From a virus (Duplodnaviria; Caudoviricetes): a DNA stretch of 40,931 bases. The translations under genes were made by a program, and so were the position numbers. The notes beneath the pieces were generated by a model. The model saw only the letters and a list, made by a program, of their open reading frames with translations, did not search any database and had not been told where the DNA came from. The stretch spans positions 1 to 40,931 of the IMG/VR virus record IMGVR_UViG_3300020313_000003; one strand, 5' to 3'. This document shows, piece by piece, positions 3,596-32,372 of this stretch. Position 1 is the stretch's first letter, and every line of letters starts with the position of its first letter.

Positions 3596-4090
3596 ATGGG
3601 ATTACCAATGATTGCAGCGATAGCCAGCCTGGCCGGAACCGGAATATCAGCCTACGGGCAGATCCAGGCTGGCAAGGCCGCCAAGGAGGCAGGCAAAGCG
3701 GCCCAGGCAAACGCCGCAGCGGCCAACAAACAAGCAGCCGATGAAAGCCGGGAGCGGATGTCCAGGATGAGGGCTATGCACCAGCAAAAGATGGGGCGTC
3801 TGCGAGCCTCTGGGGGGAAATCGGGGATTGATATTGGCAGCGGATCCTTTGAAGACCTGCTCGAGGAATCGTCCCAGAGGATGGAGCTTTCGGTTTATGA
3901 CGAGCACTACCGAAACACGATGGATATGAGGCGCCGGCAATACAAGGGAGACCTGGCCGCCTGGGAAGGCCGACAACAGCAAACATCCCAGACCCTTCGA
4001 GGGTTCGGAACTTTGCTTACGGGCGTTGGGAGAACCGCCCACCAGTTGCACCAGGCAGGAATGACAGGAATGAGCTCCGGAACCGCATAG
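3596..4090 (+). CDS. Internal virion (ejection) protein, gp14-like
   Basis: Ala/Gly-rich hydrophobic N-terminus 'AAIASLAGTGISAYGQIQAG', 'SGIDIGSGS', helical; synteny. Confidence 0.7.
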   Translation: MGLPMIAAIASLAGTGISAYGQIQAGKAAKEAGKAAQANAAAANKQAADESRERMSRMRAMHQQKMGRLRASGGKSGIDIGSGSFEDLLEESSQRMELSVYDEHYRNTMDMRRRQYKGDLAAWEGRQQQTSQTLRGFGTLLTGVGRTAHQLHQAGMTGMSSGTA

Positions 4091-4094
4091 CCCG

Positions 4095-6002
4095 ATGCCC
4101 AAGAGAGAGAACCTTCCGGACGTTCCCAACGCCGCAAAAATCGAACAGGGGCCAAGTATGTCCGCTGCTATGGCGCCGGCCCTGGGCCTGGCAGCCCTGG
4201 GAGGAGACATTGCGCAAACCGCCACCGGGATCCACCGAGATGCAATCCGGACCCAGGACATGAAGGACAAGGGGCACTTGTCTGATGTCAGGCACCAAAT
4301 GTCCCTGGCCCAGGATGAGCACGAAGCCTACCGGAAAATCTCATCCCCTGACACCTGGCAGCACGACTGGAATACCAGGGTAGAAAACGTCAAGCGCCAC
4401 GCCCTGGGGGATCCGGAAAACCCGGTCAGCTTGCTTACCCCTAATTACGAGCGCCTGGAGCGCATGATGGAGCACTGGCAGGAGCGTGGCCATGCAGATG
4501 TGGCAGGGGCTACCCAGGCGGCGGAGCTGCGACACGCCACGGACATGATCAAAGGCAATATTCGTCATGCCGTTGCCAACGGAAATTTTGAGGAAGCCTG
4601 GGAGCAGGCATCCTTTATTGATGACCGCCAAGCCCAAGAGAAAGCAGGCCAATATATTTCCCATGCGGAACAGGCACAAAGCAAAGCCAACGACCGAGCT
4701 GATTACATCGAAGGCTCAGTTGGCCCTGGTTACGCCGTTGCACTAGAAGAGCTAGAAAAAGACACCCGGTTTCCCGAGGCAGACAAAGCCTCAATTCGTC
4801 GCAGCATGGAAATCACCAAAAGAAAAACTGACGACGAACTGCTGGACGAAATCACCGACAAAATCAAGGCGGGGGAAATCACAGTTGACCAACTGGAAAC
4901 AGAAGTTCCAGAGCATATTTTACCAGAGACCAGGAGAAAGTTTATCGAAGCGGTCAAGCGCCGTGCAGACCCCCTGGAGGAATCCACCCTGGCTGAAATT
5001 AGGAATGGGGTTCATGGCTTGATGAGCAAGTTTTTCAAGTTGCGCCAGGAGAATAGCGGCGTCGAGCTGGATCAAAAATACCTGGAAGCCAGGCAAGCAT
5101 TCAAAGAACAGCACATCACGCCCAACCAGTTGAACGAGTCCTTCAAAGACAATGTAGAAGGGCTATGGAAGAAAAGCGGCATCGACAGCATGAAACAAAT
5201 GGCCGCCGCCCTGGACGCGAACCCAAAAGAGTTTACTCACCCGCTACACGTTCAAAAACAAGCGGCATCACTAGAAGCCAGCCTCGATGAGCACTTTGAC
5301 GACAAAGGGGCTATAGGCAAAATAATGAAAGGAAATTGGGGGCCTGATAACAAGAAAGGCACCGACGATGACGTTCTTCCTATCCAGGAAGTCCTGGGCC
5401 TTACTCCCAATCAAGCTCGCCATGAGTTTGAAGAAGACCTGGAAAGACTAGTTACCGGAAACTGGGATCTGTCCAGGCAGCCCAATGGCGCAACAGAGCT
5501 ATGGAAGATTTGGGCTGCTGAGAAAAAAATGAGAATGGGAAGATCCGATATCCTCAGTCGTCTGTATTGGCCACCAGGAGGGCGCAATTTTGCCGAGATG
5601 CTCAGAAGGGCAGAGTTCACAAAAGAGGATTTGGCTAACTGGCAAGGTGCCGGGGTCGATGAAAAGAACAGCATACTGATTAAATTGCGGAGACGGGCTG
5701 GCGTTGCTGAAAAAGGGGAAGACGCCCAGGGGCGGCGCATGGCAGATGTTCACCTGGACCTGGAAGGCAAGAAAATCCCCAACCCTCTAGGGCATGGCAT
5801 TGGAGAAAAGGACAAGGAAGCAATCATGTCATTTGTGGCAAATGACTTAGACGTTCCCGAGCCTGAAGAGCGGACCAAAGACGAGATAGCAGAGGAAGCT
5901 GCAAAGTTGGAATTTAACCAGCAGCGTATGCTTCCGGGAGAAAGGCTCCTCCCAGGCCGGGGAACTCTTGTGCCTCCCAACCTTCCATTCCAGTCAGACT
6001 AA
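4095..6002 (+). CDS. Internal virion (ejection) protein, gp15-like
   Basis: 635-aa helical protein between the gp14-like gene and the giant internal protein. Confidence 0.55.
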   Translation: MPKRENLPDVPNAAKIEQGPSMSAAMAPALGLAALGGDIAQTATGIHRDAIRTQDMKDKGHLSDVRHQMSLAQDEHEAYRKISSPDTWQHDWNTRVENVKRHALGDPENPVSLLTPNYERLERMMEHWQERGHADVAGATQAAELRHATDMIKGNIRHAVANGNFEEAWEQASFIDDRQAQEKAGQYISHAEQAQSKANDRADYIEGSVGPGYAVALEELEKDTRFPEADKASIRRSMEITKRKTDDELLDEITDKIKAGEITVDQLETEVPEHILPETRRKFIEAVKRRADPLEESTLAEIRNGVHGLMSKFFKLRQENSGVELDQKYLEARQAFKEQHITPNQLNESFKDNVEGLWKKSGIDSMKQMAAALDANPKEFTHPLHVQKQAASLEASLDEHFDDKGAIGKIMKGNWGPDNKKGTDDDVLPIQEVLGLTPNQARHEFEEDLERLVTGNWDLSRQPNGATELWKIWAAEKKMRMGRSDILSRLYWPPGGRNFAEMLRRAEFTKEDLANWQGAGVDEKNSILIKLRRRAGVAEKGEDAQGRRMADVHLDLEGKKIPNPLGHGIGEKDKEAIMSFVANDLDVPEPEERTKDEIAEEAAKLEFNQQRMLPGERLLPGRGTLVPPNLPFQSD

Positions 6003-6004
6003 CC

Positions 6005-9000
6005 ATGTCCAGCCCTTTCATGATGGCCCAAGCAGCCGCTGGCCAAGAAGAAGAAGAAGAAGCATCCTGGGCTCCCAAGCGAACAGGACTTCCTGGGCTT
6101 TTGCTTGGAGATGATCGAGAATTTGCCGAAGAGCTCAAAAAGCGAGGATTGCTAGAAGATTACCAGGGGCTTCTGGGTTTATTTGGCGGATCTCCTGCTC
6201 TTGGAGATGACCCCTTGTGGCTCAAGAAAAAATACCAGGAGAAAGCGGCTTTCCAGGAGATTTCTCCAAACCTTCCTACAGAAGTGGCCGCCGCCGGCTA
6301 CGCGGCAATGAACAACCTGGACGCGGACGACCTTTCTGGGCGGATAGCCGCTTTGACCAAGGAAGCCCAGAAGCTAGACACCGAAGATAAGATTTTCAGC
6401 AAAGCCCTGACTGACGCATCCCTGGCGTTTTTAGCAGGGAGCCCCCAGGACGTTGAAAAGATCAAGGAGCTCCAGGGCAGAGCCACAACAGAGTTCGAAA
6501 AGCCTTTTGCCACCAGGGGATGGAAGTATGGCAGGGAAAGAGCAGCCGGGTATTTTACCGGGGAGATCCCGGCCAGGGCTCGCCAGGCAGTAGGGCTCCT
6601 TCGCCTGGCTATGGGCGAGACTACCGAGAATTTGCCCTGGGACATTCCCGAAGAAGCCAAGGGCCTGGACGATGTCATGGAAGACCTGGCGTCCTGGGCC
6701 ATTAACCAATCGGAAGACGACCTCAACAAATGGCAACAGGCCGTCAAGATGCTTGCCGAGTCTGAGCTGGTAGGGGCAGTAGAGCCTGGATTCTGGGGCA
6801 GAGCCAACCAGATACTGAACCAACCCCTAGCCAAATCAGCCTCCGCAATAGGAGCTGCAAACGTCCAGTTTCAGTCAAAGATCGCAGAGGGCCTGGAATT
6901 GATGACCGGCGACCTGGTGAAAAAACTACCAGGGTGGGCGACCTCCGAAAGCCTCCAAAAAGGAGCCGACTGGTGGTCATTCCGGCAACGGATGTGGAAC
7001 TTCCTGGACCAGGACATCGCGCCCTGGGTCGATATGGAAGAAGCCGGGATAGTGAAAAAGGGCCTTTATGCCGCTTACGAGTCCGCTCCTTTTTTCGCAA
7101 TGGCTGCCCTGGGAGGGCCAATGGGCCTGGCAAGTGGCGGCATGATGGAGGCCGGCATGGTAGACCTGGAGCTGCGACAGCGATACGGAGATGACATCGA
7201 CCCGGCAGCCAGGAACGCAATCGCCCTGGGAACTGGCGCAATCAACGCCGCCCTGGAGAGATGGGCCTGGAAAGGAACAGCCTGGGCCGGACGCTCCGCC
7301 GGGAAAAACTTGATCAACCCGGTTTACCAGGCACTAAGGGCAAAGAATATGCGAGCGGCCTTAACCAGGGCCGGCGTAAAGGGCGTAGCAGCCAGGGCCA
7401 CCAGGGGATTTGGCGCCCTGGCAGGAGCCACCGCTATCGAGTTTGCAGAAGAAAGCGTCCAGGATTTAACCAGCGCAGCCCTGTCAGAGGTGGCAAACGT
7501 AGTAGTGCCAGACCTGATGCCAGAGCATTCCTGGCGCGAACACATAAAAGAATGGAACAACCATCATGGCGTCAGGCTGTTTGCCGTCTTGCCTTACGCT
7601 ATCCTGGGCGCCGGCGGTCGCGCATATGTCCAGCGCAGCAACATAGATGAGTTGCGCGGAATGCTGAGTGACACGGAAGGGCTCCGGGAGTCGGGAGTAT
7701 TTACCAGCGAAGAGGAGCTCAAAGAGTTTGCCGAGGAGGCCAAGTCCGACCCGGTGGTGGCGGCAGATAACTTCCAGGAACGATACGAAGAAGGCACCGG
7801 AGAGACCAGGAACGCCAACCGGGACAACCTGACGAACTCCCAGGCAAGAGCCCAGGCAGAAGAAACCGGTGAAATCATCGTAAACCAACAAGCCACCGAA
7901 GGCTACCAGGTGATCATCCCTGGGCAGGAATCAATCCATGCCAACACCATAGTCGAGGCCCAGGAGGTAGCAGCCCTGGCCCAACTGGCCAAAGATGCTG
8001 GAACGCTTTCAAAACTCCCCGACCTGATCAAGCAGCACCAGGAAGCCAAGGTTGCCAAAGAGCCAGACGACTTGGAGACAGCCACCAATCGTGTAGAGGC
8101 GGAACGGACAGAGGCAATAGAGGAACAAGCCGAAGCCGAAAAAGCCCGGCGCCCAATGACAGTAGTCGATGTGCTAACCGGTGAAGAACGGATCGCCAAG
8201 CCAAACGAAGTCACCGAGGAGCGCAAAAAAGCCTGGGAGGCCGAGCACGGACTACCCTTTGTGGGAGACGTTGCCATCCTTGGCGCCACCGAAATAGGAC
8301 TGGCCCCTGGCCCCAACCTTCCCCACGTTCGAGGAGGGAAAGCAGGAGTGGCACACGCGGTCATTAAATTATACCGAGGCGCCAGCCCGGTCACGTTTAC
8401 CGAGGAACAGGCGGAAGGCTTCTTGAGGGTCTCCCTGAAGAATGGTGATATAGAGCTCGAGGATGCCCGTCAGCGGCTCGCAGCCCTGGGCAGGGATCTT
8501 GGAATGGACTTTGCCCTGGATACCACGGAGGGCGTCATAGAGTCGTTTTCAGAACTGGCGGTCGCATACGTTTCTGGCTCCCTTACCCCGGAAGACCTCC
8601 AGCGTTTACCAGGGAAGTTTGCTAACTGGCTGCGAAAGTTTGCCGAGTTCCTGGCAAATAGCCTCCGCATGGTCCGGGGCCTGAGAGAATACAGGGAGAT
8701 GGGAGAACTCGACTCCACCCTGGAAGGTTGGGTGCGTGAAGCAGTCGGCCTGAATCCTCTCCAGGCAATGGAAGAAACAGTCGAGGAGCAGGTAGAGCAG
8801 CTCGAGGAGGACAGCGCCGCCCAGGAAACTCCGTTCCAGGGATACACCCTGGACGAAATCATAATCCCTGACGATGTCCGGGAGGCTATCGCTGAAATGG
8901 CCCAGGCGGCTGACGAGCGGTTTATGGCGTCAGATGAAATCATCATGGCGCAGTCTGAGGAAGAGGCTCAAGCGTTTGCCGCAAGCGCCTACGACATGGA

Positions 9001-12000
9001 AAGAGCAGCCCTGGATGAGCAAATAGCCTGGGAGCGGCAATACTACTCAGAGCCTACGGCTGAAGAGATCCAGGAATTTTATGATGAACAGCGAGCAGAC
9101 GCCGCTTTCTATGAGCAAGGGCGGAGAAGGGAGCAGCTTGAAGCAGAGCTTGGGGGTTTAACCAGTTGGAAAGACAGCCAATTTTACGATGCGTTTATTG
9201 GCCCTGGCGCCAGCTATGTGCTGTCGAAAAACCGAGCCAAAACGCTAGGCAAATGGGATCCAAAGTATGGGCCACATGGCGAGTGGGACAGCCAGCCACA
9301 AGGCGTCAAAAGAATCAAGGGAGGGAAAACGGTAAAGGGTAAAAAGAAAGTAGCTCACGCGGCATCAGAGGTTCCACAGTATTACTTCAAAGACTTGTGG
9401 GCGCCAAAAGGCACTCCCGCCGATCAGCTTTATTTCCCGTCTGACCTGGGCCACCTGGCCTACAACCAGTCAGATCAACTAGGAAACCGCCAACCTATCG
9501 AAGGCACTACAAGCCCAGACGCCGCAGGATTTTGGGCAGCGTTTGTATATGCGGTCGATCAAGACCAAAGAAGGATTGAAATTGAAAACGAACTGGAAGA
9601 GATGGAACGGGAAGCCGGCCTGGAAAAGGTCTCTCCTACATTCTCTATTGCCCCGAAGGGGGCTGGCCTCGAGGAGATCCGCGCCAACGCCGATAAACAA
9701 GCAGAGCAAGAGCACCAGGAAAGAATCCTTCCGGAAACTCCGTTTGGCGACCAACCATACAACCGTGTAGCCGAATACTATGATATCGAAACCCACGACC
9801 CGGCGAGGCGTTCCTGGAGGCCGGCGGGTATAGGTTATGCGGGTTATCAGTATACTCGTCATGATTTTGCCGGACAAGCAATCGACCCAAATTCTGTTGG
9901 GGGCTATGCTTTCATGCCCAGGCGCCATGAGTATTTCGTGAAGCTCCAGGAGCAATTTGAGAAAGAAGCGCCGGTCAGGGATGATCGAGTTGCCCAAAAG
10001 ATTGGAGGCCAGTGGGTGTTTCCTCCTAATAAAATCACACACGAAGATTACGAGGAGTGGTTTCAGCAAAAGATAAGAGATGGAGAAGTGCCTATCCTAC
10101 GAACTGTTCCATTCAAGTTTACCTCCCTGGCCGACTCTCTCCAGGCTATGGGCGGCGTCATGACTCGAGCCGAAGCAAAAAGGGCCGGCCTGACCCAGGC
10201 ACAGCTTGACCGCGAATACGGCAACGTCATCCCGGTAGACCAGATCCCCCCTCACTTGCGGTCTATTATTTTCGGGGAAGCCCGGTTTGCGGAAAGCCTG
10301 GCAAGCGAAGCGACCGATAAGAGAGCCCTGGAAAGCAGAGGAACCTCCACGCGAGCTAAAACAAAACGCCTTCCAAGTGAAATTGCGGCGGAACTAAGCA
10401 ATCCCGAGTCACCGTTTTTTCCCAGGAACAAGGTCATCCCAGAGCTCCTGGGCCGCATAGAAAAAAACATGGCATACGTCTGGAAAGATAGAGGGGTTAA
10501 CCAGGAGCAGGAATTAGATATCCGCGCCAGGCGAGACAACAACACCCAGGACAAGCCCGAAACATACGACCCCATTTTTGAAAAAGCCGTTGACCAGTGG
10601 GGGGAGAAAACAGAGACGCCTGGGGCATACGAGTTCTGGGATGCGATTCGATACCGGATGCCGGAAGCGTTTATAGCGTTTCCCAGGTCGCCCAAAGCGC
10701 GACCAAAAGACAAAGGCGGCCCCAGGAGCGACTTCAGATACGAGCCGCTCTATGGCAAAACGTCACAAGCCCAGACTGAGCAGGGAGAGCTGACGTTCAG
10801 TATAGCGCCGTCCAGGATGACTCCAGGCGACAGCACCAGGGTAATCGTTACCCAGGAGCAAACCCTGGTAGGACCAGCAACCTTTGCCATCGCCGGTTAT
10901 CACGGGACGCGCCACAAAATCCCCAAGTTTGAAATGGACAAAGTGGGCCAAGGAATTGGCGCCCAGGTATGGGGATACGGCCTGTATTTTGGAGGAGCTC
11001 GAGACATTGGAGAAGACTACGCCCAGATGATGGCGAACCAGCATTCTCCCTACGCGGTGTCTTTTCGCAAAGGCCAGGAGATCCCTACCGTTCCTCCTTC
11101 TCCATTGCTTCCAGACAACACTTATGACGTTGGCCCCAACTGGTTTGTCAAAGACACCAGGACAGACGAACGGGTCACCGACTACATGACAGTCGATGAG
11201 GCTGACGAAGCCTTTGACCGCCTGAGCCTGGAGGCGATGAATCAATACAAGGTCGAGCTGGATGTGGAGCCTGAGCAGTTACTCTTTGCCGACACCCCGT
11301 TTTCTCAGCAGAGCGAGTTTGTCCAGGAGACCCTTCGCAAGATTATCCCGGCCTGGACCCGATTTCTTCCAGAAGGCCAAGGCATAGTAGTGGACGGCTC
11401 TACCTGGGAAGACCGCTCGCACGTTTACCCGTTTGACGACGAGCACGTTAAAACGCTGCTCCAACTCACTTACGACGAGGAGATGGACAGTTACAAAATG
11501 CCAGACGGGACGTATGTAAACATTACCCAATGGGCGCAAAGCAAAGGCATGATAGCCAGGAAGGTTTCCGAGGCTTTACTAAGCGCCGGCATCAAAGGGA
11601 TTGCCTACGAGGAAGGGACTGCTGCAAGAGCCCTGGACAGAGCAATGATGCGCCGGCGCAAATCAATGCGAAGCGGCCAGGGGCATCCTCTCTATGATCC
11701 AGGAGCCGCAGAAAGGTGGCAGGATCTCCCGGACGCCCAGAGCTACGTCATTTTTGATGAAAACGACATCAAGATCTTGGAGGAGAATGGCAAACCAATC
11801 GCCCTGGAAAACCACCAGGTGACGTATGCTGTAGCGCCCAGGCACACGCCACCGCCAGGAGCCGAGGTCAACCAGGTGGAGTTGAAGAAGAAAGGCAAGC
11901 CCACCAAGATCGGGCCGCTTCCGACCTGGACCGTTCCAAAAGACACCAAGCAGTCCCTGGGCAAAAAGATCCTGGCAGCAAACCACGCAAAAGACGGGAT

Positions 12001-15000
12001 CCCTGGCAAAGCCCTATTTGATCGGCTGGACTTAGCCAGGGAAATGGTGGCCGATGACCCTGGGCGCCTGGCCAGCCCAACCGGGTGGATGGAAACCATG
12101 CAAGCAGCCGGCGTGTGGGGAAACATCCTGGTCCCCCCAGGGCTGATGAAAACGATAGTAGAGCGCCCTGGGCAATACGTCGGGCTCCTCGAGGGGGGCT
12201 ATCACGAAAACCAGACAAAGCCTGGAGTTTACCAGGCAGCCAGGGACGGACTCAACTGGACCAAGAAGATGGGCCGGGAGCTTAACAAGACTGGCGCCGT
12301 CCCCGAATGGAATACGGTCCTGCACCATTTCTGGGGACTGCTATCCCGCCGAGCCACACCAGTCCAGCAGGAAGCCATGTGGCTCCGGATGCTTACGCAC
12401 CGGCCTATCCTGGACTCAATCCAGAGAAGCATCAACGGGACATTTTCCGCCTGGGCAGTAGAGCAATTCAAGACAAACAGAAAAGAGCTGCTAAAGAAAA
12501 CCAGGCAAATGCGAACCAATGACAAGGGAAAGGTTCGGCCCTTAGACGAAAGGGATGCCTGGATCGCCCTGGTAATTGACGCCAGGGAAGCCACGGCAGA
12601 TGGGTCAGCTTTACCAGGCGGCGCTCCTATGGGCAACAATGTCACCAGCAACGCCAATGACTTTTTTGCCATGCTTACATTCTGGGATGGCAGATGGGGC
12701 GAGGTTTCCGATGTCTACTGGACCAACGATTCTATAGAGATGGGGCGCCGGTTCCACTCCCTGGGCGATGATGCGGTAGGGATCCAGAACAAGGTTCAAA
12801 GGTTCGTTGGCCTTACTTACGGAATTCCTGGGCTGATCATGGACCGGTGGAAGTTTGTGGAATTCTGGCTGCCCGACCTGATGAAGGAAATGCGGGTGAG
12901 GAAGCCCAAGAACTTCTTCAAATATGGGAAGACCGAGGCGTCCAGGGCAACCCCTGAAGATCCTTCCAGCCTGTATGGGTTCTATTCTCTGATCGAAAGC
13001 CAAAGCCCGGTATTCTCCCTGGCGTTTTACGAGATGATGGAGACTGGCCTGGAGGTGGCCATCGACAACAGCCCCGAGCTCAAGAGATTCCTGGGGCCGA
13101 ATGCAAACGTGGGCGGCTTGCACTGGCACGGGTGGAACGCGATCAAGAACGAGGCAGTGGGGCACTCGAGCCTGGACCTTTCACTTGATCTTCTCAAGAA
13201 CTACGGGTTAAAGTCCAACGCTGCCGCCGTCGAGAAGACGATCAAGGCCGGCAACTACTACACCGAAACCCAGAAGGCAGATGGCACAGTCGAACGATTC
13301 ACAATCTCCAAGGGAGTCCCAAGCGCCACCCGTCAGGAGCGGGTTCCCGATGGACCCAGAGACCGAGCCCTGGGAAGACGCCGCGATGCAAAAGGCCCAG
13401 GACGCGGCAATAGAAAAGATCAGGAAACTTTCGCCATAGGCCCGGTCTTTGCCTCTGGCCTTTCCAAGGGGCCGACAGATATTCGAGAGGCGATCAAGCA
13501 AGGCAAGCCGGTAGGCATTGCAGCTACCTATGGTATCCCTCTTCCTGGCCCAGGAGGAGTAACTGAAACCGGGAAGCCGGCGTTTCAGCGAGAGCCGTCT
13601 GACACAATTAGGACTCTCCTCCGCGATTACCTGAACAAGGGCGGCCAGGTGTTTATTGATTCCGGCGCGTTTACCGACTTCCGAGCGGGACGCATGACTG
13701 ACTTTGTAGGAGTTTTCCAAACCTACGAACGCTTCTCCGAAGGGGTAGACCCTGGCAACCTGGAGAACCTCTATGTGGTGGCTCCCGATGTGATTGGGAA
13801 CCCAGGAGAAACAGAGCTGTTGCAAATGGACTTTATCAAAGAGTCTGCTGCGCTTGCCGACAAAGGCGCCCAAATCATTGTTCCTGTCCAAACAGGCCAG
13901 GGCTCCCTGGTTGAAACTGTCCTTCGCTCTTTTTCCTCTCTGCAAGAATATTGGCCATCAAAGGAATGGTGGAGCGCCCCTATTGTAGGGGTGGCATACG
14001 AGGAGAAATCCTGGGGCAAAGAAGAGGTTGTCGATTTTATCAAGGCTTATGAAGGGATCGGCGTTGACGAAGATACCCATGCTGACTTGCACGAAATTTT
14101 CAGCGCCCCTCCCACTATCCATCTCCTGGGCGGAGGCAGCGCAAAGGTCCAGGACATCGAGGACACGGTAGGAGGGACTGAAGTCACTATCCAGGGAGAC
14201 TCTCTATTCAAGGGAGCTTCCCGCCGTAAGAGCACCAGGGCCAAGCGCCCCGAGCAGGGCGAGCTCAGTTTCGCCATAGTCCCGGCGGAAATGGTAGAGG
14301 CCCACCGCCAGGCAGAAGCAAACATGGACGAAGAGGAAGGCCAGCGCCTGGTTGACGAGGCTGCTGCCATGTCCCCGTTCACAATGCCAGTCTGGCACGG
14401 GAGCGGAATGCACTCTTTTGAAGGCCCCCCGTCTCACCCAGGTGCGTCAAAACAACGGGGGGACGCCCCTTCCGGGTGGAATCTAAGCCCATCGGCCAAA
14501 GGAGAGTTTTCCGACGATAGGCGCTTTTTCCGAATGAGGCAAATGGAGACAGGTCGTGCAGGGGCCATCTACTTTACTATGGATCCTCGCCACCATGCTT
14601 TTTCCAGGGCTTTTGGGGATGTCCGCAAATACTTTATCAACCCAGGGAGAGTGGCCGATTTAACCAGGGAAACCAACTCCCCGGAATTCCAGCAACTGCT
14701 TGAAAACTACAACAAGCACTACGAAAAGGCCGGCTTTCAAATTGCACCTCGACCAGAGGAGAAAGGGTTCGTGGGTTACACCAAGGAAAACGCTCCCCCA
14801 AGTTGGGAACTGTTTGATGATCTCGAAGCTGGTGCCGCTGACTTTTTGATGAACGGAGACTATGATGCGTTTATCCTGGAAGAACGACTTGCTGGTAAAC
14901 TTCCGCCATCGCTATGGGAAAATAGAGGGATCACGGACACAATTAAGTCTATCGCCATCCTGGATCCCTCGAGGGTAAAATCCGGAGAGCCTTTTACCTA

Positions 15001-18000
15001 CGAGTGGGAACCAAACAACCCGATGGAGACAAAGACCCTGGTCCCCCTGGACGAGCGGTTTGATCCCAATATCCCTGACGTTTCCTACGCTATCAGCCCG
15101 GCGGAAGGGTTCGACCCTCTCCTCGAGGCGATCACCGACAAGATCAACGACTCCGCTGAAGGAGTAGTCGAGTTCCTGGAAAAGATCCGGGACCGGGTTG
15201 CAGAGATCAAAGCCCAATACGAAAGCGACCGGGCGTCCATTCTGGTGTCAGAGTCTTACGACGAAGGAGGAGCAGAGATTGATTTCGAGGGAGGAGTCAA
15301 AACTGGAGACCTGGACCTGCGAGCGGCCCTGGCTTACCTGGGCGCGATCCAGAAGGTGCTCCCCAGGGAGATCCAGGGATTTGTGGGCACGGCGCAAAGG
15401 CTGGCAGATTTCAAAACTATGGACGCAATGTCCAAGGAGCTTGCCAGGAGAATCCCCAGGATCGAAGCCGCATTAGAAAACTACCTGGCCAGGAGCCACC
15501 GAAAGTCGATCCGCAAGATCCTCAAGAAAGGTGCTGCAAAAGTAAGCAACTCGAGGAAGGCCACTGGTAAAATCGGGCCAGCCGGCCATGCGATTTTCAA
15601 GGAAGCCAGGCTGGCAATGAGATTGCAGCTCACAGAAGATGAGAAGCGAGCCGACCGGACCCTCCAGGAGAAAGGCGAAGAGATGGCCCAGAGTCTCCTG
15701 GACCAGATCGAAGACAATGACAGCCTGGACCTGGACGAAGTGGATGAGCTGGATGGCAGAGCCGCCGCCTGGTTGTTGTTCACGGACTTCCAGAATGCCA
15801 ACTCCGAGCGCCTACGCAAAGGGCTGGACTTGTTATCGGACACCTACAGCGAAGGCCGGGAGAAGTGGTTGCGAGTCCTGGGCGCCAGGAAGGCTCAACG
15901 AGAAGCCAGGCTCCAGGCCATCGAAAAGCTGATAAAAGACAAGACCAGGGCTGGACGCGCTGCTTCGATCAGGGCTGATGAACACGCTCTCAAACGGATC
16001 AGCGAAGGATTCATGTCCGCGTTTACTTCCGGATCACAGATGGTTCGGCGCCTGGGCGAGACGACCAACGATGAAGATATCAAGGCGATGCTGGAGGAAA
16101 TGGAGGAAGCCCTGGCAGCCGCTGAAGACCAGGAGACTGACCTGGACTACCAGGACAACGAAGCGTTTGCCGAGGCGCTTTACCGAATCCTGGGCGTGAA
16201 ATACGAGCACCAGTTATCTCGCAAAATCAAAAAGCATTCGACCGCGCCTGACAGCGAAGTTCCTGTGACCTCCCTCGAGGGAAGAAAGACCAGGAAGTAT
16301 TCTATTTCCAAGCTCGAGGCGGAGAGAATTGCCAACGGGGAAGCAACAGGATTTACCGGGAAAGGCGAATGGATAGAGCTGACCCTGGGGATGCGCCACG
16401 CAATCGAGGAAGCCTGGGAAAACTTTGAGGAACTGACCGAGGAAGAGCAATCCGGGAAGCGGGTGCTGAAATTTGAGGTAGTCGAAGCGACCGGCAGCAG
16501 AAAAAGCCTGGGCCTCCGGACTGATCTCGAGCTGCTAAACCTATGGCTAACCATGCGCCAGCCTGACCAGGCAGAGAAGTTGCATCGCCTGGGATATGAC
16601 CAAACAACCCAGAGAGAGCTCGAGGCTTATTTACCAGCAGAGGTGATCGCCCTGGGAGAATGGATGGCCGAATATCTGCGCCAGGACCAGGAGACTATTG
16701 ACCGATTGCACCGGGCGGAAAAAGGAATAGGCATGAACCTGGTCGAGAACTATTGGCCAGTCCGGAATGATGTTAGCGGCCAGGACTACGACGACCTGCA
16801 ACTGGACGGGAACCAGAAACAGTCTGGGCGCTCTGTCAGCTTCACTATGCAGCGGGTGACCAACAACGCGGAACCCGCTATCGCTGACGCCCTGGGAGTT
16901 TTCCTGGCTCACCGGTCTCAGGTGAATTTTTACAAAGCCCATGTTGCAACTCTTCGAGAGTGGGGCGGCCTGGTCAGACACGAAAGATTTTCCAACGCCG
17001 TCAGGCGCTCCCTGGGCGACACCTTCTACGGTGCCCTCTCTCACAGAATGGAGCGGATCCAAAACGGAGGGGTGATGAAAGCTGGCCGTGCCCTGCTCTT
17101 TGATCGCCTGGTAAAGGGACTGAAAAAGCGAACCTCCCTGGGGATCCTGGGCTGGCGCTTGTCCACTATCATGGTGAACTTTACCGCCGCTCTGAACTCC
17201 TTCCTGGAAATACCCGCCAGAGAGCTCCTAAAAGGGCTCCTGCTGGCTTCCAAGAGGCCGGGCGCATGGAAGGAAGCCTGGAACTCTCCAGGCATCCGGA
17301 GACGCCTGAGAGACGGCGCAACGTATGAAGCCCAGATTGCCAAGGCCAGGGGACCGCAACGCCGCCCAATCATTAGCCAACTCGAGAAGACCGCCGAAAA
17401 GGGAATCACTCCCATCAACTACGCTGATGTGGGCGCCAATATGCTAGGCGCAGTGGCCGTCTATGAATACACCAGGACAAAGTCCCTGGAAGCCGGCGCT
17501 ACAGAAGAACAAGCAAAACAGGAGGGAGAAAAGGCAGTGGACCGGCTCATGGCAAGAGCAGCTCAACCCGCCCAGCGTTTTACCAGGAGTGAGATGGAAC
17601 ACCGAGCCCTGGAGAACCCATTGGCCGCCTTGTTTGCTTTGTTTGTATCGGAGCCCAGAAAGAACCTTTCCGTGGCCATCCTATCCGCCAGGCAACTTGC
17701 CACCGGCAAAGGGATCTACGATTCCAAGGCAATGGCGGCCCAGGCATTTGCCACATCATCCTTTTTCCTACTCGCCCTGGAGCACATAATCCGACTGTCC
17801 TACCAGGCAGTCTTCAGAGCAGATGAGGACGATGAAGAAAAAGTCCTGGACCGCGTGATAGAAAAGCTGACTGACGGCAAAGCCTGGGCGCATCGCCTTG
17901 CTGCAAATCATGCAGCGGGGATCCCTATTTATGGGCCGGCTTACGAATGGGTAGTGGGCAGTTTGGTCAACTCATCTGCCATTCCTGGGGAGGACGTTTA

Positions 18001-18514
18001 CCAGTTTACCAATACGGAAAACCCCGCTGTTCGAGCAGTCGAAAAGCTAGGGCGCGGAACCAAAAAATTTATCGACGCCCAGGACGAAGACAGCAAAGAA
18101 GAATCCCTGGATGCTACGATAGATATGATCCAGGCCGGGGGCAACCTGATCCCTGGTGGGCCGCTGTTTGCCCAGCTTGCCAATGTCGGGGAAGCCACCC
18201 TGGGCTTTACCAGCTCCAATCTCACGGACGAAGGACGCCGTGCCAGGTTCAAAGGACGATTCAACAAATACAAAAAATCCCTGACAGAACTCCTGGGGCC
18301 GACGACCAACAAGGAAACAGGGGAAACCGACAAGGACATCCAGCAGCAAAAATGGGACGCCCAGACAGCTTACCTGCTCGAGGCCCTGGCTCCCCTGGAA
18401 ACTGACCAGATCATCGAGCTCACCCAGGAACTGTCTATTTCCAAGGCCGTGCGGGAGGAGATCGAGTTCGGGCTTCTAAATGGCCTGGATACAACTACAA
18501 TAGAAGACGAGTGA
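6005..18514 (+). CDS. Giant internal virion / polyvalent protein (4169 aa) with degenerate zincin, two ADP-ribosyltransferase-like, HhH-like and TGT/DpdA-like domains
   Basis: Occupies the gp16 position before the tail fibre; motifs YHGT..GYGLYF, WHGS..AIYFT, FIDSGAF..PDVIG..IHLLG, GIQNKVQRF..IMDRW; repeated linker motif. Confidence 0.8.
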   Translation: MSSPFMMAQAAAGQEEEEEASWAPKRTGLPGLLLGDDREFAEELKKRGLLEDYQGLLGLFGGSPALGDDPLWLKKKYQEKAAFQEISPNLPTEVAAAGYAAMNNLDADDLSGRIAALTKEAQKLDTEDKIFSKALTDASLAFLAGSPQDVEKIKELQGRATTEFEKPFATRGWKYGRERAAGYFTGEIPARARQAVGLLRLAMGETTENLPWDIPEEAKGLDDVMEDLASWAINQSEDDLNKWQQAVKMLAESELVGAVEPGFWGRANQILNQPLAKSASAIGAANVQFQSKIAEGLELMTGDLVKKLPGWATSESLQKGADWWSFRQRMWNFLDQDIAPWVDMEEAGIVKKGLYAAYESAPFFAMAALGGPMGLASGGMMEAGMVDLELRQRYGDDIDPAARNAIALGTGAINAALERWAWKGTAWAGRSAGKNLINPVYQALRAKNMRAALTRAGVKGVAARATRGFGALAGATAIEFAEESVQDLTSAALSEVANVVVPDLMPEHSWREHIKEWNNHHGVRLFAVLPYAILGAGGRAYVQRSNIDELRGMLSDTEGLRESGVFTSEEELKEFAEEAKSDPVVAADNFQERYEEGTGETRNANRDNLTNSQARAQAEETGEIIVNQQATEGYQVIIPGQESIHANTIVEAQEVAALAQLAKDAGTLSKLPDLIKQHQEAKVAKEPDDLETATNRVEAERTEAIEEQAEAEKARRPMTVVDVLTGEERIAKPNEVTEERKKAWEAEHGLPFVGDVAILGATEIGLAPGPNLPHVRGGKAGVAHAVIKLYRGASPVTFTEEQAEGFLRVSLKNGDIELEDARQRLAALGRDLGMDFALDTTEGVIESFSELAVAYVSGSLTPEDLQRLPGKFANWLRKFAEFLANSLRMVRGLREYREMGELDSTLEGWVREAVGLNPLQAMEETVEEQVEQLEEDSAAQETPFQGYTLDEIIIPDDVREAIAEMAQAADERFMASDEIIMAQSEEEAQAFAASAYDMERAALDEQIAWERQYYSEPTAEEIQEFYDEQRADAAFYEQGRRREQLEAELGGLTSWKDSQFYDAFIGPGASYVLSKNRAKTLGKWDPKYGPHGEWDSQPQGVKRIKGGKTVKGKKKVAHAASEVPQYYFKDLWAPKGTPADQLYFPSDLGHLAYNQSDQLGNRQPIEGTTSPDAAGFWAAFVYAVDQDQRRIEIENELEEMEREAGLEKVSPTFSIAPKGAGLEEIRANADKQAEQEHQERILPETPFGDQPYNRVAEYYDIETHDPARRSWRPAGIGYAGYQYTRHDFAGQAIDPNSVGGYAFMPRRHEYFVKLQEQFEKEAPVRDDRVAQKIGGQWVFPPNKITHEDYEEWFQQKIRDGEVPILRTVPFKFTSLADSLQAMGGVMTRAEAKRAGLTQAQLDREYGNVIPVDQIPPHLRSIIFGEARFAESLASEATDKRALESRGTSTRAKTKRLPSEIAAELSNPESPFFPRNKVIPELLGRIEKNMAYVWKDRGVNQEQELDIRARRDNNTQDKPETYDPIFEKAVDQWGEKTETPGAYEFWDAIRYRMPEAFIAFPRSPKARPKDKGGPRSDFRYEPLYGKTSQAQTEQGELTFSIAPSRMTPGDSTRVIVTQEQTLVGPATFAIAGYHGTRHKIPKFEMDKVGQGIGAQVWGYGLYFGGARDIGEDYAQMMANQHSPYAVSFRKGQEIPTVPPSPLLPDNTYDVGPNWFVKDTRTDERVTDYMTVDEADEAFDRLSLEAMNQYKVELDVEPEQLLFADTPFSQQSEFVQETLRKIIPAWTRFLPEGQGIVVDGSTWEDRSHVYPFDDEHVKTLLQLTYDEEMDSYKMPDGTYVNITQWAQSKGMIARKVSEALLSAGIKGIAYEEGTAARALDRAMMRRRKSMRSGQGHPLYDPGAAERWQDLPDAQSYVIFDENDIKILEENGKPIALENHQVTYAVAPRHTPPPGAEVNQVELKKKGKPTKIGPLPTWTVPKDTKQSLGKKILAANHAKDGIPGKALFDRLDLAREMVADDPGRLASPTGWMETMQAAGVWGNILVPPGLMKTIVERPGQYVGLLEGGYHENQTKPGVYQAARDGLNWTKKMGRELNKTGAVPEWNTVLHHFWGLLSRRATPVQQEAMWLRMLTHRPILDSIQRSINGTFSAWAVEQFKTNRKELLKKTRQMRTNDKGKVRPLDERDAWIALVIDAREATADGSALPGGAPMGNNVTSNANDFFAMLTFWDGRWGEVSDVYWTNDSIEMGRRFHSLGDDAVGIQNKVQRFVGLTYGIPGLIMDRWKFVEFWLPDLMKEMRVRKPKNFFKYGKTEASRATPEDPSSLYGFYSLIESQSPVFSLAFYEMMETGLEVAIDNSPELKRFLGPNANVGGLHWHGWNAIKNEAVGHSSLDLSLDLLKNYGLKSNAAAVEKTIKAGNYYTETQKADGTVERFTISKGVPSATRQERVPDGPRDRALGRRRDAKGPGRGNRKDQETFAIGPVFASGLSKGPTDIREAIKQGKPVGIAATYGIPLPGPGGVTETGKPAFQREPSDTIRTLLRDYLNKGGQVFIDSGAFTDFRAGRMTDFVGVFQTYERFSEGVDPGNLENLYVVAPDVIGNPGETELLQMDFIKESAALADKGAQIIVPVQTGQGSLVETVLRSFSSLQEYWPSKEWWSAPIVGVAYEEKSWGKEEVVDFIKAYEGIGVDEDTHADLHEIFSAPPTIHLLGGGSAKVQDIEDTVGGTEVTIQGDSLFKGASRRKSTRAKRPEQGELSFAIVPAEMVEAHRQAEANMDEEEGQRLVDEAAAMSPFTMPVWHGSGMHSFEGPPSHPGASKQRGDAPSGWNLSPSAKGEFSDDRRFFRMRQMETGRAGAIYFTMDPRHHAFSRAFGDVRKYFINPGRVADLTRETNSPEFQQLLENYNKHYEKAGFQIAPRPEEKGFVGYTKENAPPSWELFDDLEAGAADFLMNGDYDAFILEERLAGKLPPSLWENRGITDTIKSIAILDPSRVKSGEPFTYEWEPNNPMETKTLVPLDERFDPNIPDVSYAISPAEGFDPLLEAITDKINDSAEGVVEFLEKIRDRVAEIKAQYESDRASILVSESYDEGGAEIDFEGGVKTGDLDLRAALAYLGAIQKVLPREIQGFVGTAQRLADFKTMDAMSKELARRIPRIEAALENYLARSHRKSIRKILKKGAAKVSNSRKATGKIGPAGHAIFKEARLAMRLQLTEDEKRADRTLQEKGEEMAQSLLDQIEDNDSLDLDEVDELDGRAAAWLLFTDFQNANSERLRKGLDLLSDTYSEGREKWLRVLGARKAQREARLQAIEKLIKDKTRAGRAASIRADEHALKRISEGFMSAFTSGSQMVRRLGETTNDEDIKAMLEEMEEALAAAEDQETDLDYQDNEAFAEALYRILGVKYEHQLSRKIKKHSTAPDSEVPVTSLEGRKTRKYSISKLEAERIANGEATGFTGKGEWIELTLGMRHAIEEAWENFEELTEEEQSGKRVLKFEVVEATGSRKSLGLRTDLELLNLWLTMRQPDQAEKLHRLGYDQTTQRELEAYLPAEVIALGEWMAEYLRQDQETIDRLHRAEKGIGMNLVENYWPVRNDVSGQDYDDLQLDGNQKQSGRSVSFTMQRVTNNAEPAIADALGVFLAHRSQVNFYKAHVATLREWGGLVRHERFSNAVRRSLGDTFYGALSHRMERIQNGGVMKAGRALLFDRLVKGLKKRTSLGILGWRLSTIMVNFTAALNSFLEIPARELLKGLLLASKRPGAWKEAWNSPGIRRRLRDGATYEAQIAKARGPQRRPIISQLEKTAEKGITPINYADVGANMLGAVAVYEYTRTKSLEAGATEEQAKQEGEKAVDRLMARAAQPAQRFTRSEMEHRALENPLAALFALFVSEPRKNLSVAILSARQLATGKGIYDSKAMAAQAFATSSFFLLALEHIIRLSYQAVFRADEDDEEKVLDRVIEKLTDGKAWAHRLAANHAAGIPIYGPAYEWVVGSLVNSSAIPGEDVYQFTNTENPAVRAVEKLGRGTKKFIDAQDEDSKEESLDATIDMIQAGGNLIPGGPLFAQLANVGEATLGFTSSNLTDEGRRARFKGRFNKYKKSLTELLGPTTNKETGETDKDIQQQKWDAQTAYLLEALAPLETDQIIELTQELSISKAVREEIEFGLLNGLDTTTIEDE

Positions 18515-21413: not shown

Positions 21414-22402
21414 GCTCAAAACGCCCGACCGTTCTTCCATCTTGCCGGCCCTCAATCCAGGGCACCATTCTCACAGATGTGTGGAGCACTACAGTCTCTC
21501 CTCTTCTGGACCTGGACGGCATGACAACCGCCGCCGCTGGTTACAGCGTCAGAAAAATCAGGGCTGCCTATTCAGGGAATGCCATGAAAGTAAGGCGAGC
21601 AAGTGACAGCGACGAAGCTGACGTAGCATTCGATGACAGCGGGAAAGTGTCCTCTGCCAGCGGGATCAGCGTAACGTCAGGTGACTACGGTGGAACAATG
21701 AACCTGGGCGCCTTCCTCTCAGGAACCACTGGCCATGTCACTACTCTTTACGACCAGGTCGGATCCGAGAACGCCACAAACTCGACCGCCGCAAAGCAGC
21801 CCTATTTGCGGACAGCCGGCAGCACGACTATTGGAGACACGGTTGAATTGATGTTCGATACCGGGACAAATCAATACCTAAGCACAGGATTCGATCACAG
21901 CAACTCCGACGACTCTCGAACGCAACTGGTGGTGACCCAGGTGAACAGCTCTGTCCATGCGACAGATTACTATGGCCTGATCGGGTGTCGATACTACCAG
22001 GCATACGGGACAGAAATTTATTACCGGAACGGATACTACACCTGGTCAATCGGTGAAGCCTCGAGCAACTCTTACCAGGAATTGACCGCTTCCAACGGCG
22101 CCAGGGCCGGCCAGAAAGATATCGTCATCGCTTCTTACGAGCCAAGCCTGTCATCCAACGAGCAGAAGATTCGCGTCAACCAGACCCTGACTCAGACCAA
22201 CTGCACAAAGGACGTTAATGACTACGGCTATGGTCCACTGCAAATCGGGAGAAGGTGGGCCTATCAATCGGATGGCGCTACAGACCGGACCTACTATGGA
22301 AACGTCTACGAAGTGATCGTCTGGGCCAGCGCCCTTTCAGCAACCAACGCCGCCGCCGCAGAAACCAACACGATGGCCTACTTCTCCATCGCTTCGCTAT
22401 GA
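21410..22402 (+). CDS. Tail-associated lectin-like protein (arabinofuranosidase-B / concanavalin-A-like beta-sandwich)
   Basis: 'AAAGYSVRKIRAAYSG.AMKVRRASD..EADVAF', 'VTTLYDQ.GS..AT....KQP', C-terminal 'YYGNVYEVIVW..AL'. Confidence 0.65.
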   Translation: MSSKRPTVLPSCRPSIQGTILTDVWSTTVSPLLDLDGMTTAAAGYSVRKIRAAYSGNAMKVRRASDSDEADVAFDDSGKVSSASGISVTSGDYGGTMNLGAFLSGTTGHVTTLYDQVGSENATNSTAAKQPYLRTAGSTTIGDTVELMFDTGTNQYLSTGFDHSNSDDSRTQLVVTQVNSSVHATDYYGLIGCRYYQAYGTEIYYRNGYYTWSIGEASSNSYQELTASNGARAGQKDIVIASYEPSLSSNEQKIRVNQTLTQTNCTKDVNDYGYGPLQIGRRWAYQSDGATDRTYYGNVYEVIVWASALSATNAAAAETNTMAYFSIASL

Positions 22403-25213: not shown

Positions 25214-26224
25214 CTAGACAGTTTTAGTAAACATCCGGGAATAGATTTCCCGAAGCAAAACAATATCCTGGGCGGCGTAATCCAACGCCAGGCGCTTCTG
25301 CTCCCTGGCTTCCACAGGGATCCTTTGGGACTGGTCGCCCTGCATTGCCCCCTCAAAAAACTTCCAGCAGGTAGCGCCGGTGACAGGGGTGGAGGAGGTG
25401 GGGATGCCGAGCTCCTTGCAAGCCTTCTCCAGCGAGCAAAAGCTGTTCCACTTGTCATGCTCGAGGAATTCAGGTGTCAGGTCCAGGAACTTGGGCCGCA
25501 AAACACGGGGCTGCTGAAGCCAGGGGACATCAATTCCCAGGGCCAGGGCGCGGCGCAAGAGCATATTCCAGTCGAAGTTCGAGCGGTCATTCCCGCCTGT
25601 CCAGTTTACCAGGGCTCGCTTGGGCTTCCCTGGTGAATTGATCCAGCCGTGCTCATTAAACACCGCGTCAAAGAACGCACTGATAATGGCCTCCTCTCCG
25701 CCATCGCCGGCCTCGACGATTTCAGCAAGAGCAGAATCCCTGCGCCTCCGGAGCTCCCACTTGTTGCCGTCCTGGCAAAGGATGGAAACAGGACCATCAT
25801 TCTCAGCCCACTGAATCATGAATATCTCAGCGGTCCTGGGACAAAGCGCGGCCTTGGAAAACGCATCAGTCTCCGCCTGGATGGCGTCGGCTTCGTATTT
25901 TGCCAGGTGATCCACCTCTTTTTGCGCGGATTCCGCCAGGGCGTGAAGAACCTTTTCCATGATCTTGGTTTCGTCCTTGAGATTCCCACAGCGGACTCCC
26001 AGGGACTTGGCGATCTTGGACCAGTCAGGGGCGTCACTGGCGCCCTTGGCGTTGCCAGACGAATCCTGATAATTGACGGAGGTATCACCATAAGCCAGCG
26101 CCTGGTCTACCAGTTTGTCAGGATCGAGGAGAGGAAGCGGCTCATATGGGGCCTGCGGCTCGAGCCAGGACCGGACCCTTTCGGGCGCCGGCCTGGTCTC
26201 GAGGTCAATGAAGAACGTGCTCAT
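25214..26224 (-). CDS. DnaQ-like (DEDDy) 3'-5' exonuclease, PolB-exo-related
   Basis: ExoI 'FIDLET', ExoII 'NFDWNML', ExoIII 'YAAQD'; adjacent to SSB and ERF. Confidence 0.8.
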   Translation of the reverse strand: MSTFFIDLETRPAPERVRSWLEPQAPYEPLPLLDPDKLVDQALAYGDTSVNYQDSSGNAKGASDAPDWSKIAKSLGVRCGNLKDETKIMEKVLHALAESAQKEVDHLAKYEADAIQAETDAFSKAALCPRTAEIFMIQWAENDGPVSILCQDGNKWELRRRRDSALAEIVEAGDGGEEAIISAFFDAVFNEHGWINSPGKPKRALVNWTGGNDRSNFDWNMLLRRALALGIDVPWLQQPRVLRPKFLDLTPEFLEHDKWNSFCSLEKACKELGIPTSSTPVTGATCWKFFEGAMQGDQSQRIPVEAREQKRLALDYAAQDIVLLREIYSRMFTKTV

Positions 26225-26670: not shown

Positions 26671-26671
26671 A

Positions 26672-31300: not shown

Positions 31301-32016
31301 AGCGGGTGATGATCGACCCTGGGCACGGGGGAAGAGACCCAGGCGCCGTGGGGCCAGGGGGGCTCGAGGAAAAATCAGTAGCCCTGGATGTGGCCCAGGC
31401 CCTGTGGGCAAAGATGGTCAAGCACCCTGGCCTGATGCCCAAGCTGACCCGAGACGGGGATGACTATGTAAGCCTGGGAGACCGGGCAGCAGCCTCGAAC
31501 GCATACAAGGCGGACCTGTTCATTTCGATCCACTGCAATGCAAGCGAGAGCCATTTGGGGACCGGATACGAGGTGTGGACAAGTCCTGGGAATACCTCAA
31601 GCGATAGGGCTGCCACCCTGGCGTTTAACCGCTACCAGGCAGCCTTCCCCCACCGCCAGGCCAGGGTCAGCCTGGGTGACGGTGACCCGGACAAGGAGGC
31701 CAGGTTCACGGTTCTCATGAAGACCAGGGGGCCGGCGCTCCTCTTCGAGCTCGAATTCATCGACAATTCAGAGGGGGAAGAGTTCCTGGCCCTTACAAAT
31801 CCAGGGGTATTGGCAGAGCCTCTTTACCAGGGCGCCCTTGATTTCTTCGACCTGGTAGACCCGGTGGAGGAAGGAGAAAAGGAAAAGATCGAAGCCAGCG
31901 TCAATCTGCTGGAAATCCTGGAAATGCTCCAGATGGCGGCCAGCGGCCTGAAATCGGCCTCGCAGCACCTGGACGCCGCCAGGGCGGAGCTGTCAAAAGC
32001 CTGGAGAAATCTGTGA
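31297..32016 (+). CDS. N-acetylmuramoyl-L-alanine amidase (Amidase_3), putative endolysin
   Basis: 'IDPGHGG.DPGAVG', 'EK', 'FISIHCNA', 'LFELEFIDN'. Confidence 0.92.
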   Translation: MKRVMIDPGHGGRDPGAVGPGGLEEKSVALDVAQALWAKMVKHPGLMPKLTRDGDDYVSLGDRAAASNAYKADLFISIHCNASESHLGTGYEVWTSPGNTSSDRAATLAFNRYQAAFPHRQARVSLGDGDPDKEARFTVLMKTRGPALLFELEFIDNSEGEEFLALTNPGVLAEPLYQGALDFFDLVDPVEEGEKEKIEASVNLLEILEMLQMAASGLKSASQHLDAARAELSKAWRNL

Positions 32017-32372
32017 AAGTTGTGCCCAAACAGGTCTCCGTCGCCGGCGTGACCATAAAAGTAGTGCGTCGAGACCTCACGGACATCGAGTGCTACGGGC
32101 AATATGACGACGACAAGAAGCGGATAACGCTATGCACGACGCTTCGAGGGGCCAAATTGTGGGGAACCTTCCGGCATGAACTGCTCCACGCGGCCCTGGC
32201 GGCCTCTGGGGTAGCGTATGGACTCCCCGAGGGCGTCGAAGAGGTATTGGTTCGGGGGCTTGAGAACATCTTCTTTCCCTGCTATGAAAGGCACTTGACC
32301 AGGAAGGTGCGTCAGCAGCTCGCGGTCGAATCACAACCCCCAAAGCATGGATCCGATCTTCACCCTGACTAG
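32013..32372 (+). CDS. Small zincin-like metallopeptidase
   Basis: 'YGQYD.....ITL ... TFRHELLHA ... EE.LV' (HExxH plus downstream Glu). Confidence 0.7.
   Translation: MKVVPKQVSVAGVTIKVVRRDLTDIECYGQYDDDKKRITLCTTLRGAKLWGTFRHELLHAALAASGVAYGLPEGVEEVLVRGLENIFFPCYERHLTRKVRQQLAVESQPPKHGSDLHPD

Follow-up and report, generated by a model that had tools for sequence, protein, structure and literature searches.

The window analysed here is a complete virus record of 40,931 bases with direct terminal repeats (IMG/VR record IMGVR_UViG_3300020313_000003) from an uncultured marine phage, and it encodes a giant polyvalent protein of 4169 amino acids (aa) on the plus strand (6005..18514). In this protein, exchangeable enzyme-like modules follow one another with one four-residue tag, [TS]-[FY]-[SA]-[IV], at their joints, and the tag is conserved as protein, not as DNA. 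Comparison of modules carried by different proteins indicates that the tag likely goes with the host protein (the backbone) rather than with the module. The modular architecture is real and well supported, and cutting of the chain is proposed: we give even chances to the reading that the tags of this polyvalent ejection protein of phage type are sites of self-processing, which would be read and cut by its own zincin-like domain.

Modules and tags of the giant protein

From the variable region that precedes the first tag to its C-terminus, the protein is laid out as follows.

8825..9637 (+): variable region before motif 1, aa 941-1211, 81-82% identical in close relatives
9638..9649 (+): motif 1, TFSI; relatives diverge directly downstream
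9638..10792 (+): module 0, 385 aa; a 52% identical allele occurs in two close relatives
10793..10879 (+): motif 2 (TFSI) and a conserved 29-aa piece, which precedes the same ART type in distant relatives
10880..11821 (+): motif 3 (TFAI) and module 1, ART-PolyVal-like, 314 aa (PF18760, E-value 5.7e-4; 28 fetched proteins match)
11822..13426 (+): motif 4 (TYAV) and module 2, 535 aa, with an HhH-GPD DNA-glycosylase-like fold (model and fold match)
13427..14266 (+): motif 5 (TFAI) and module 3, 280 aa, a DpdA/TGT-like lead; relative P0003 has an ART here instead
14267..15082 (+): motif 6 (SFAI) and module 4, ART-like, 272 aa, with the widespread PLxERF..D tail at its end
15083..18511 (+): motif 7 (SYAI) and the conserved, mostly helical C-terminal domain, 1143 aa

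The first-pass annotation had described a seven-copy linker ending in xP. All seven copies are present, at 9638, 10793, 10880, 11822, 13427, 14267 and 15083 (aa 1212, 1597, 1626, 1940, 2475, 2755 and 3027 in protein numbering), and the core [TS]-[FY]-[SA]-[IV] stood, but the xP tail occurs in six of the seven only (the third copy reads TFAIAG). As proline is missing from one copy in the window and occupies this place in only 22% of 301 looser matches in the family, the tag is taken here as the four core residues alone. The core was seen seven times in the protein, whereas 2000 shuffles gave 0.46 on average and never more than 4; this test is not independent, since the pattern was drawn from the same sequence, and the independent tests are those in relatives. 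The other open reading frames (ORFs) of the genome hold one match in 5570 residues (13 ORFs). As for the payload, which had been put at about 30% of the genome, the gene does make up 30.6%, but the modules between the first and the last motif account for 13.3%.

Where models are available, the motifs lie at domain borders, as had been claimed. Module 2, with its 535 aa, folds as a single unit (predicted template modelling score 0.88), and predicted local distance difference test (pLDDT) values below 50 are confined to its residues 1-4 and 514-535. The motif falls in low-confidence joints in both structure models, that of module 2 and that of the relative L003.

The enzyme-like identities first assigned to the modules fared differently. 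Both ART-like modules (1 and 4) are supported by motif and transitive links, though below or without a Pfam cut-off score: module 1 reaches 21.1 bits against PF18760 (cut-off 31.2), and module 4 has no Pfam match and is connected by an iterative profile to 45 fetched proteins, some of which bear PF18760 at that place. The HhH-like module was borne out by structure, as module 2 matches Tm1821 with Z 11.8 (root-mean-square deviation (rmsd) 3.8, 207 of 209 residues aligned); the next three matches (Z 8.6-9.5) belong to the same superfamily, and the top 22 of 48,161 chains are such glycosylases or the related queuine salvage enzyme. Module 2 thus resembles HhH-GPD DNA glycosylases in fold, but differs from them in its length, its large insertions, its 7-15% identity and its location inside giant phage proteins. 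Its alignment contains invariant K324 and D341, and PDB sequence searches with the module and with this alignment returned nothing useful. The module, which no Pfam family covers, is widespread and located mostly at the C-terminus of proteins of 1.6-2.7 thousand aa with HExxH domains (P0172-P0279). The TGT-like module is a lead only: its feature-space neighbour cluster has DpdA in 17% of the members (score 0.92), and it has no Pfam match, PF23859 included; free-standing homologues of module 3 occur on plasmids (43 records, 35% identity over 170 aa).

For module 0, a search that covered carriers of up to 2000 aa found no relative beyond the close group, which is weak evidence. The region of aa 941-1211 had no match among the other fetched proteins, and the C-terminal domain has 827 representatives at E ≤ 0.001. 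The 29-residue piece between motifs 2 and 3 (R-x-F/Y ... G-P) is shorter than a domain. Judging from gene position and family, the modules may have an anti-defence role.

Exchange of modules at the tags, another point of the first-pass annotation, is directly visible in relatives. Protein P0003 matches the window's protein through TFAIGP, then carries an ART in the place of module 3 and rejoins at SFSIVP; its anchors and module 2 are 95-98% identical to those of the window, and the ART shares 18% identity with module 3, between neighbours at 98% and 78%. In the two close relatives with the other allele of module 0, identity falls to 52% directly after motif 1. Of 433 internal alignment ends across the family, 62 are no more than 5 aa from a motif, where 16 are expected at random (maximum 26). 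Relatives carry ART-PolyVal, LPD23, LPD37, PBECR5, RadC and methyltransferase modules. Six proteins (P0010, P0011, P0013, P0015, P0017 and P0018) have an insertion at aa ~720-830, upstream of the peptidase-like domain, which by its look may be a 3D/lytic-transglycosylase-like module. The LPD23-bearing modules of P0009, P0015, P0170 and L010 9557 have an HExxH domain of their own, and the backbone domain of these proteins is EExxE.

The tag in related proteins

Relatives were gathered by searches with the C-terminal domain (21 proteins and the best 150 of 827 representatives). For the density test, 114 of 178 sequences were kept, in which both anchors are present; 10 near-copies were dropped, as were the fragments, and the strict motif was set as [TSN][FY][SA][IVL]. 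It occurs 175 times in the 64,152 residues between the anchors, 24 times in the 107,868 residues before and 35 times in the 108,490 residues after them, that is, 2.73 per 1000 aa between the anchors and 0.22 and 0.32 outside, an approximately ninefold difference; shuffling gave 18 between the anchors, with a maximum of 32 in 200 shuffles. When no pattern was given beforehand, TFSI (the top one) and SFSI were the two most enriched 4-mers. A strict copy is present in 78 of the 114 relatives, and copy number increases with the length of the inter-anchor zone (rho 0.46); 34 of the remaining 36 match a looser pattern, a level that is also reached by chance. The empty forms P0018, P0011 and L003 retain one motif, and in the shortest forms (P0102, P0142 and P0166) it is located 16-23 residues after the peptidase-like domain.

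The suggestion that the motif is a recombination joint at the DNA level found no support. Third codon positions of the seven copies in the window agree at 0.36, compared with 0.26-0.54 for unrelated codons of the same residues, and the serine of the motif copies is encoded by both TCT and AGT. The search for a DNA repeat at the tags yielded only one 33-nucleotide (nt) pair at 73%, among at least 60 chance-like families. An integron-like cassette system is not seen either, with no conserved DNA or repeat family at the tags and no integrase among 47 ORFs. Comparison with population contigs revealed four patch replacements (8052-8295, 9180-9374, 11053-11140 and 11356-11519), all of them away from the motifs; run X10 was left out of this comparison, as part of the gene was uncovered there with no joining contig. 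These four patches are hypervariable spots within the giant gene. At the protein level, motifs 2 and 3 are both retained in ART modules that are only 25-29% identical to that of the window.

The sequence of the tag varies with the backbone. Module 2 is carried by 110 large proteins, 109 of which were grouped into 33 clusters. F-[SQ]-[IL] stands before module 2 in all five clusters with the backbone of the window and an intact upstream side; in 26 clusters with other or unassigned backbones, there is an aromatic-x-Pro tag (or RMP) in 14, an FS-type match in three and nothing in nine, as counted by hand in stretches of 110 residues, so that some matches are due to chance. Other backbones repeat tags of their own: FMP occurs six times in P0274, FRP four times in P0191 and RMP four times in P0198. 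The ART tail (38 clusters from 53 proteins) gave a similar picture: with the backbone of the window the +2 residue is aliphatic in 28 of 30 clusters and Pro in none, and with other backbones it is Pro in seven of eight at the first match, an excess that was reached in 8 of 5000 permutations. Strong branches of the module tree require three tag changes. One carrier that branches from among the FSI carriers has FQL at each of its three joints, and module 2 of the window groups with an FAA carrier. The tag is therefore likely a property of the host protein, because like module types bear FSI, FQL, FAA or FxP tags in different host proteins.

These results also bear on the possibility that the tag is a mere by-product of module traffic: each donor module would end in the tag owing to its origin in a related polyvalent protein, and the short shared sequence would be used as a crossover by the ERF-type annealing protein of the phage. 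The genome does encode ERF and SSB, swaps end at tags, the 33-nt joint pair at 73% exists and tag type clusters on the module tree; in addition, cassette recombination is raised for Verrucomicrobium loci in the main text of PMC5512222. We nevertheless consider this explanation improbable, as DNA conservation at the tags does not exceed coding need, internal tags persist in the strongly diverged ART modules, all four population-contig replacements avoid the tags, and a module that moved between backbones altered its tag on both sides.

The zincin-like domain as candidate reader

Upstream of the first motif, the protein contains a domain that the first-pass annotation had not mentioned.

8279..8764 (+): zincin-like (metallopeptidase (MPTase)-like) domain, aa 759-920, based on the family profile, alignment with HExxH members and the model of a relative
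8402-8416 (+): E-E-Q-A-E in the place of HExxH, aa 800-804
8540-8542 (+): putative third-ligand Glu846

In the family of this domain (128 non-redundant rows), the site reads EExxE in 73 rows, HExxE in 16, EExxH in 11, HExxH in seven, EDxxE in seven, R-x-x-x-Q in five, HExxD in three and QExxE in two; two rows have gaps and two read otherwise. Of the positions of the two histidines, the first is H or E in 117 of 124 members and the second is H, E or D in 119 of 124; the base is E or D in all 124, and the third-ligand Glu is present in 125 of the 128 rows. Since substitutions at the ligand positions stay almost entirely within His, Glu and Asp, and since the base is invariant, the alignment suggests that a carboxylate-rich metal site is retained, perhaps for a carboxylate-preferring metal. 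The five R-[DE]-x-A-Q members with two to four tags are P0028, P0052, P0096, P0147 and P0168; the C-terminal domain of P0028 is the closest to that of the window outside its own group (52%).

In the L003 model, a strand pair is followed by the motif helix and by the helix with the third-ligand Glu (pLDDT 80-95), and the tag lies within a stretch of pLDDT below 50 with no docking visible, which does not speak against binding. Among the chains listed for residues 1-164 of this model, the only solved structures matched are of zincin fold, with Z 4.0-5.5: the closest are residues 75-250 of anthrax lethal and edema factors (Z 5.0-5.5, rmsd 4.2-4.8, 110-139 residues aligned), followed by residues 345-555 of ACE2 (Z 4.0-4.1), a region that we also take to be of zincin fold. 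When the whole three-domain L003 model was used, the matches listed were filled by its helical end and included no zincin chain. PDB and Pfam sequence and profile searches with the peptidase-like domain gave no known family, and the profile match to other HExxH domains is 15%. Modelling thus portrays a domain that may be called zincin-like in layout, a weak match that lacks the defining HExxH.

If the tags are self-processing sites, the following course of events may be envisaged. The tag bounds the modules in flexible joints, persists in forms without modules and is conserved at the protein level; its type follows the host protein. The giant protein would be packaged and then injected, and its reader would be the zincin-like domain that precedes the first tag. 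The cut would probably fall before the aromatic residue, and would proceed via a carboxylate-rich metal site formed by Glu800, Glu804 and Glu846, with Glu801 as the base; an aromatic residue just after the cut suits thermolysin-type zincins. The released ART-, glycosylase- and transglycosylase-like modules might then have host or phage nucleic acids as their targets at an early stage of infection. Modules would move by ordinary homologous recombination, and only the joins that restore a tag would be retained. The full form of this proposal, in which a His-free, all-glutamate metalloprotease reads a backbone-specific peptide code, new modules are re-tagged and the chain is cut on host entry, is put forward tentatively.

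Several observations weigh against cutting by this domain. HExxH, by which active zincin-like MPTases are defined, is replaced by EEQAE in the window and by EExxE in 73 of the 128 rows, with the Glu of the following helix in its expected place (125 rows and the L003 model), and we know of no tested protease with an EExxE site. The five R-x-x-x-Q members have lost two ligand residues and still carry their two to four tags each, and the strict tag shows no dependence on site type (50 of 68 EExxE proteins compared with two of seven HExxH proteins). The zincin-fold match is weak, as Z values below 8 may reflect a common arrangement, and residues 75-250 of the anthrax factors are presumably a non-catalytic binding domain of zincin fold. 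As regards the tags, 371 of the 433 alignment ends lie more than 5 aa from any motif, which is expected because alignment ends are fuzzy and modules diverge internally; the FSI label needs three changes on the module tree against 9.0 when shuffled, and because of this clustering shared descent explains part of the match between tag and backbone. Finally, according to PMC13434306, the N4 virion RNA polymerase gp50 has an HExxH domain and its recombinant form was purified intact.

Some of these points would equally suit a dead protease that merely binds the tag, the tags being docking points at which the long chain is folded up for packaging or fed through the tail channel one module at a time, and the chain staying whole. 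We regard this as unlikely. Most family sites are His-free, the R-x-x-x-Q members retain tags, and the best structural matches are to the N-terminal region of the anthrax factors, assumed above to be a non-catalytic binder; the N4 polymerase, too, is described as an intact, beads-on-a-string protein, the peptidase-like region of which is required for encapsidation. On the other hand, ligand exchange that is nearly confined to His, Glu and Asp, together with the invariant Glu/Asp base, is more in keeping with a retained metal site than with one in decay, and a tag placed directly before each enzyme start suits the release of free enzymes.

Alternatively, the tag could be the cutting site of another protein, either of a host protease or of the product of a stand-alone gene:

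32013..32372 (+): 119-aa gene with canonical HExxH and downstream EE (phrog_1233), flanked by the endolysin and a metallophosphoesterase-like gene and lying upstream of the terminase

This product looks like a minimal zincin, and the built-in site of the giant protein is non-canonical. A PDB sequence search with the 119-aa gene gave nothing useful. The gene and its family had no match in two of two near-complete phage relatives that have EExxE domains, and the fetched DNA of these two yielded no small HExxH gene that was credible; it was therefore rejected as a general cutter. A host protease could still do the cutting, because backbone families may also differ in host, but as a whole we consider an outside cutter quite improbable.

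Genome setting and known systems

The genome has a podovirus-type gene set: terminase, portal, capsid, two tail-tube genes, an internal virion protein, a 635-aa gene, the 4169-aa gene and tail fibre. The genes of the putative ejection proteins are arranged as follows.

3596..4090 (+): internal virion protein, T7 gp14-like (phrog_418, E-value 4e-15; PF24072, E-value 0.007)
4095..6002 (+): 635-aa gene, assigned by position only to the place of the second ejection protein
6005..18514 (+): giant polyvalent protein gene, placed where the largest ejection protein is expected, with the tail tube and internal virion protein upstream and the tail fibre downstream

The order of tail tube, small internal protein, middle protein, giant protein and tail fibre is that of the T7 gp14-gp15-gp16 ejectosome. 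Because its gene occupies the slot of the largest T7-like ejection protein, the giant protein likely travels in the virion and enters the host together with the phage DNA. Searches of Pfam, PHROGs and NCBIfam gave no match for the 635-aa gene, the giant protein has no sequence match to gp16 or gp47 in Pfam or PHROGs, and NCBIfam returned no family. The start of the giant protein is at 6005 or 6101, and database copies begin 32 residues later (4137 aa). An initial single-sequence scan across viral contigs found nothing for the giant protein; annotated phages contain no close relative of it, and ART matches there are weak.

Relatives were found in nine genomes of Verrucomicrobiota, including Luteolibacter and Haloferula, and for this reason the host is probably a member of that phylum. 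DNA of the window was detected in 20 marine runs from six studies, and three of these runs may be its source. The tail fibre has a weak SUN beta-glucosidase match and the next gene matches arabinofuranosidase B (E-value 1e-5; 18516-22402, plus strand), which would fit a polysaccharide-rich host surface. A recombination block on the minus strand (25217-27274) comprises the ERF annealing protein, SSB and an RNase H-like exonuclease. The ORFs scanned (47 for the integrase) included neither a DNA polymerase nor an integrase.

The giant protein has the features of phage-type polyvalent proteins: at least two unrelated enzymatic domains in one chain of 4169 aa (ART-like and HhH-GPD fold), location among phage or prophage virion genes, and domain content that varies between relatives and is drawn from the polyvalent domain set. 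Similar to the polyvalent proteins with a zincin-like MPTase hub presented in the main text of Iyer et al. 2017 (PMC5512222), the named hosts of which include Verrucomicrobia, it is a giant multi-domain protein of the virion block with a peptidase-like domain; unlike in those systems, a tag defines the joints and follows the backbone, and the site lacks both histidines. Self-cutting, i.e., autoproteolytic module release, was proposed there for such peptidase domains. That main text gives HEXXH and HEXXXH sites, not EExxE, and does not contain the words 'linker', 'glycosylase' or 'queuine'; the supplementary alignments may show such joints or EExxE. In the literature found, from which subscription papers were largely absent, no joint tag of polyvalent proteins is described, and no cut site has been reported since the self-processing proposal of 2017. 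Polyvalent proteins and the self-cutting idea were thus known already, and the His-free site and the host-dependent tag are additions.

N4 gp50 is likewise the largest of three ejection proteins, with ~3500 aa, loosely linked domains and an HExxH domain; unlike the protein studied here, it carries an RNA polymerase and not a variable module array, and the available text describes no joint tag. According to another report (10.64898/2026.04.10.717836), phi24B gp47 (2811 aa) combines LPD domains with a metallopeptidase and was detected in virions by mass spectrometry; its peptidase is proposed there to act on peptidoglycan.

For the self-processing of polyvalent proteins, the tag gives exact candidate cut positions. 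It also delimits putative injected enzymes precisely, such as the HhH-GPD-fold module, which 110 other large proteins also carry. The natural series of sites that occur with one tag (HExxH, HExxE, EExxH, EExxE and RxxxQ) makes cutting and binding separable. If the all-Glu reading is true, the active site would be a new one for a protease, and cut sites as well as module borders could be read off by rule in polyvalent proteins by the thousands.

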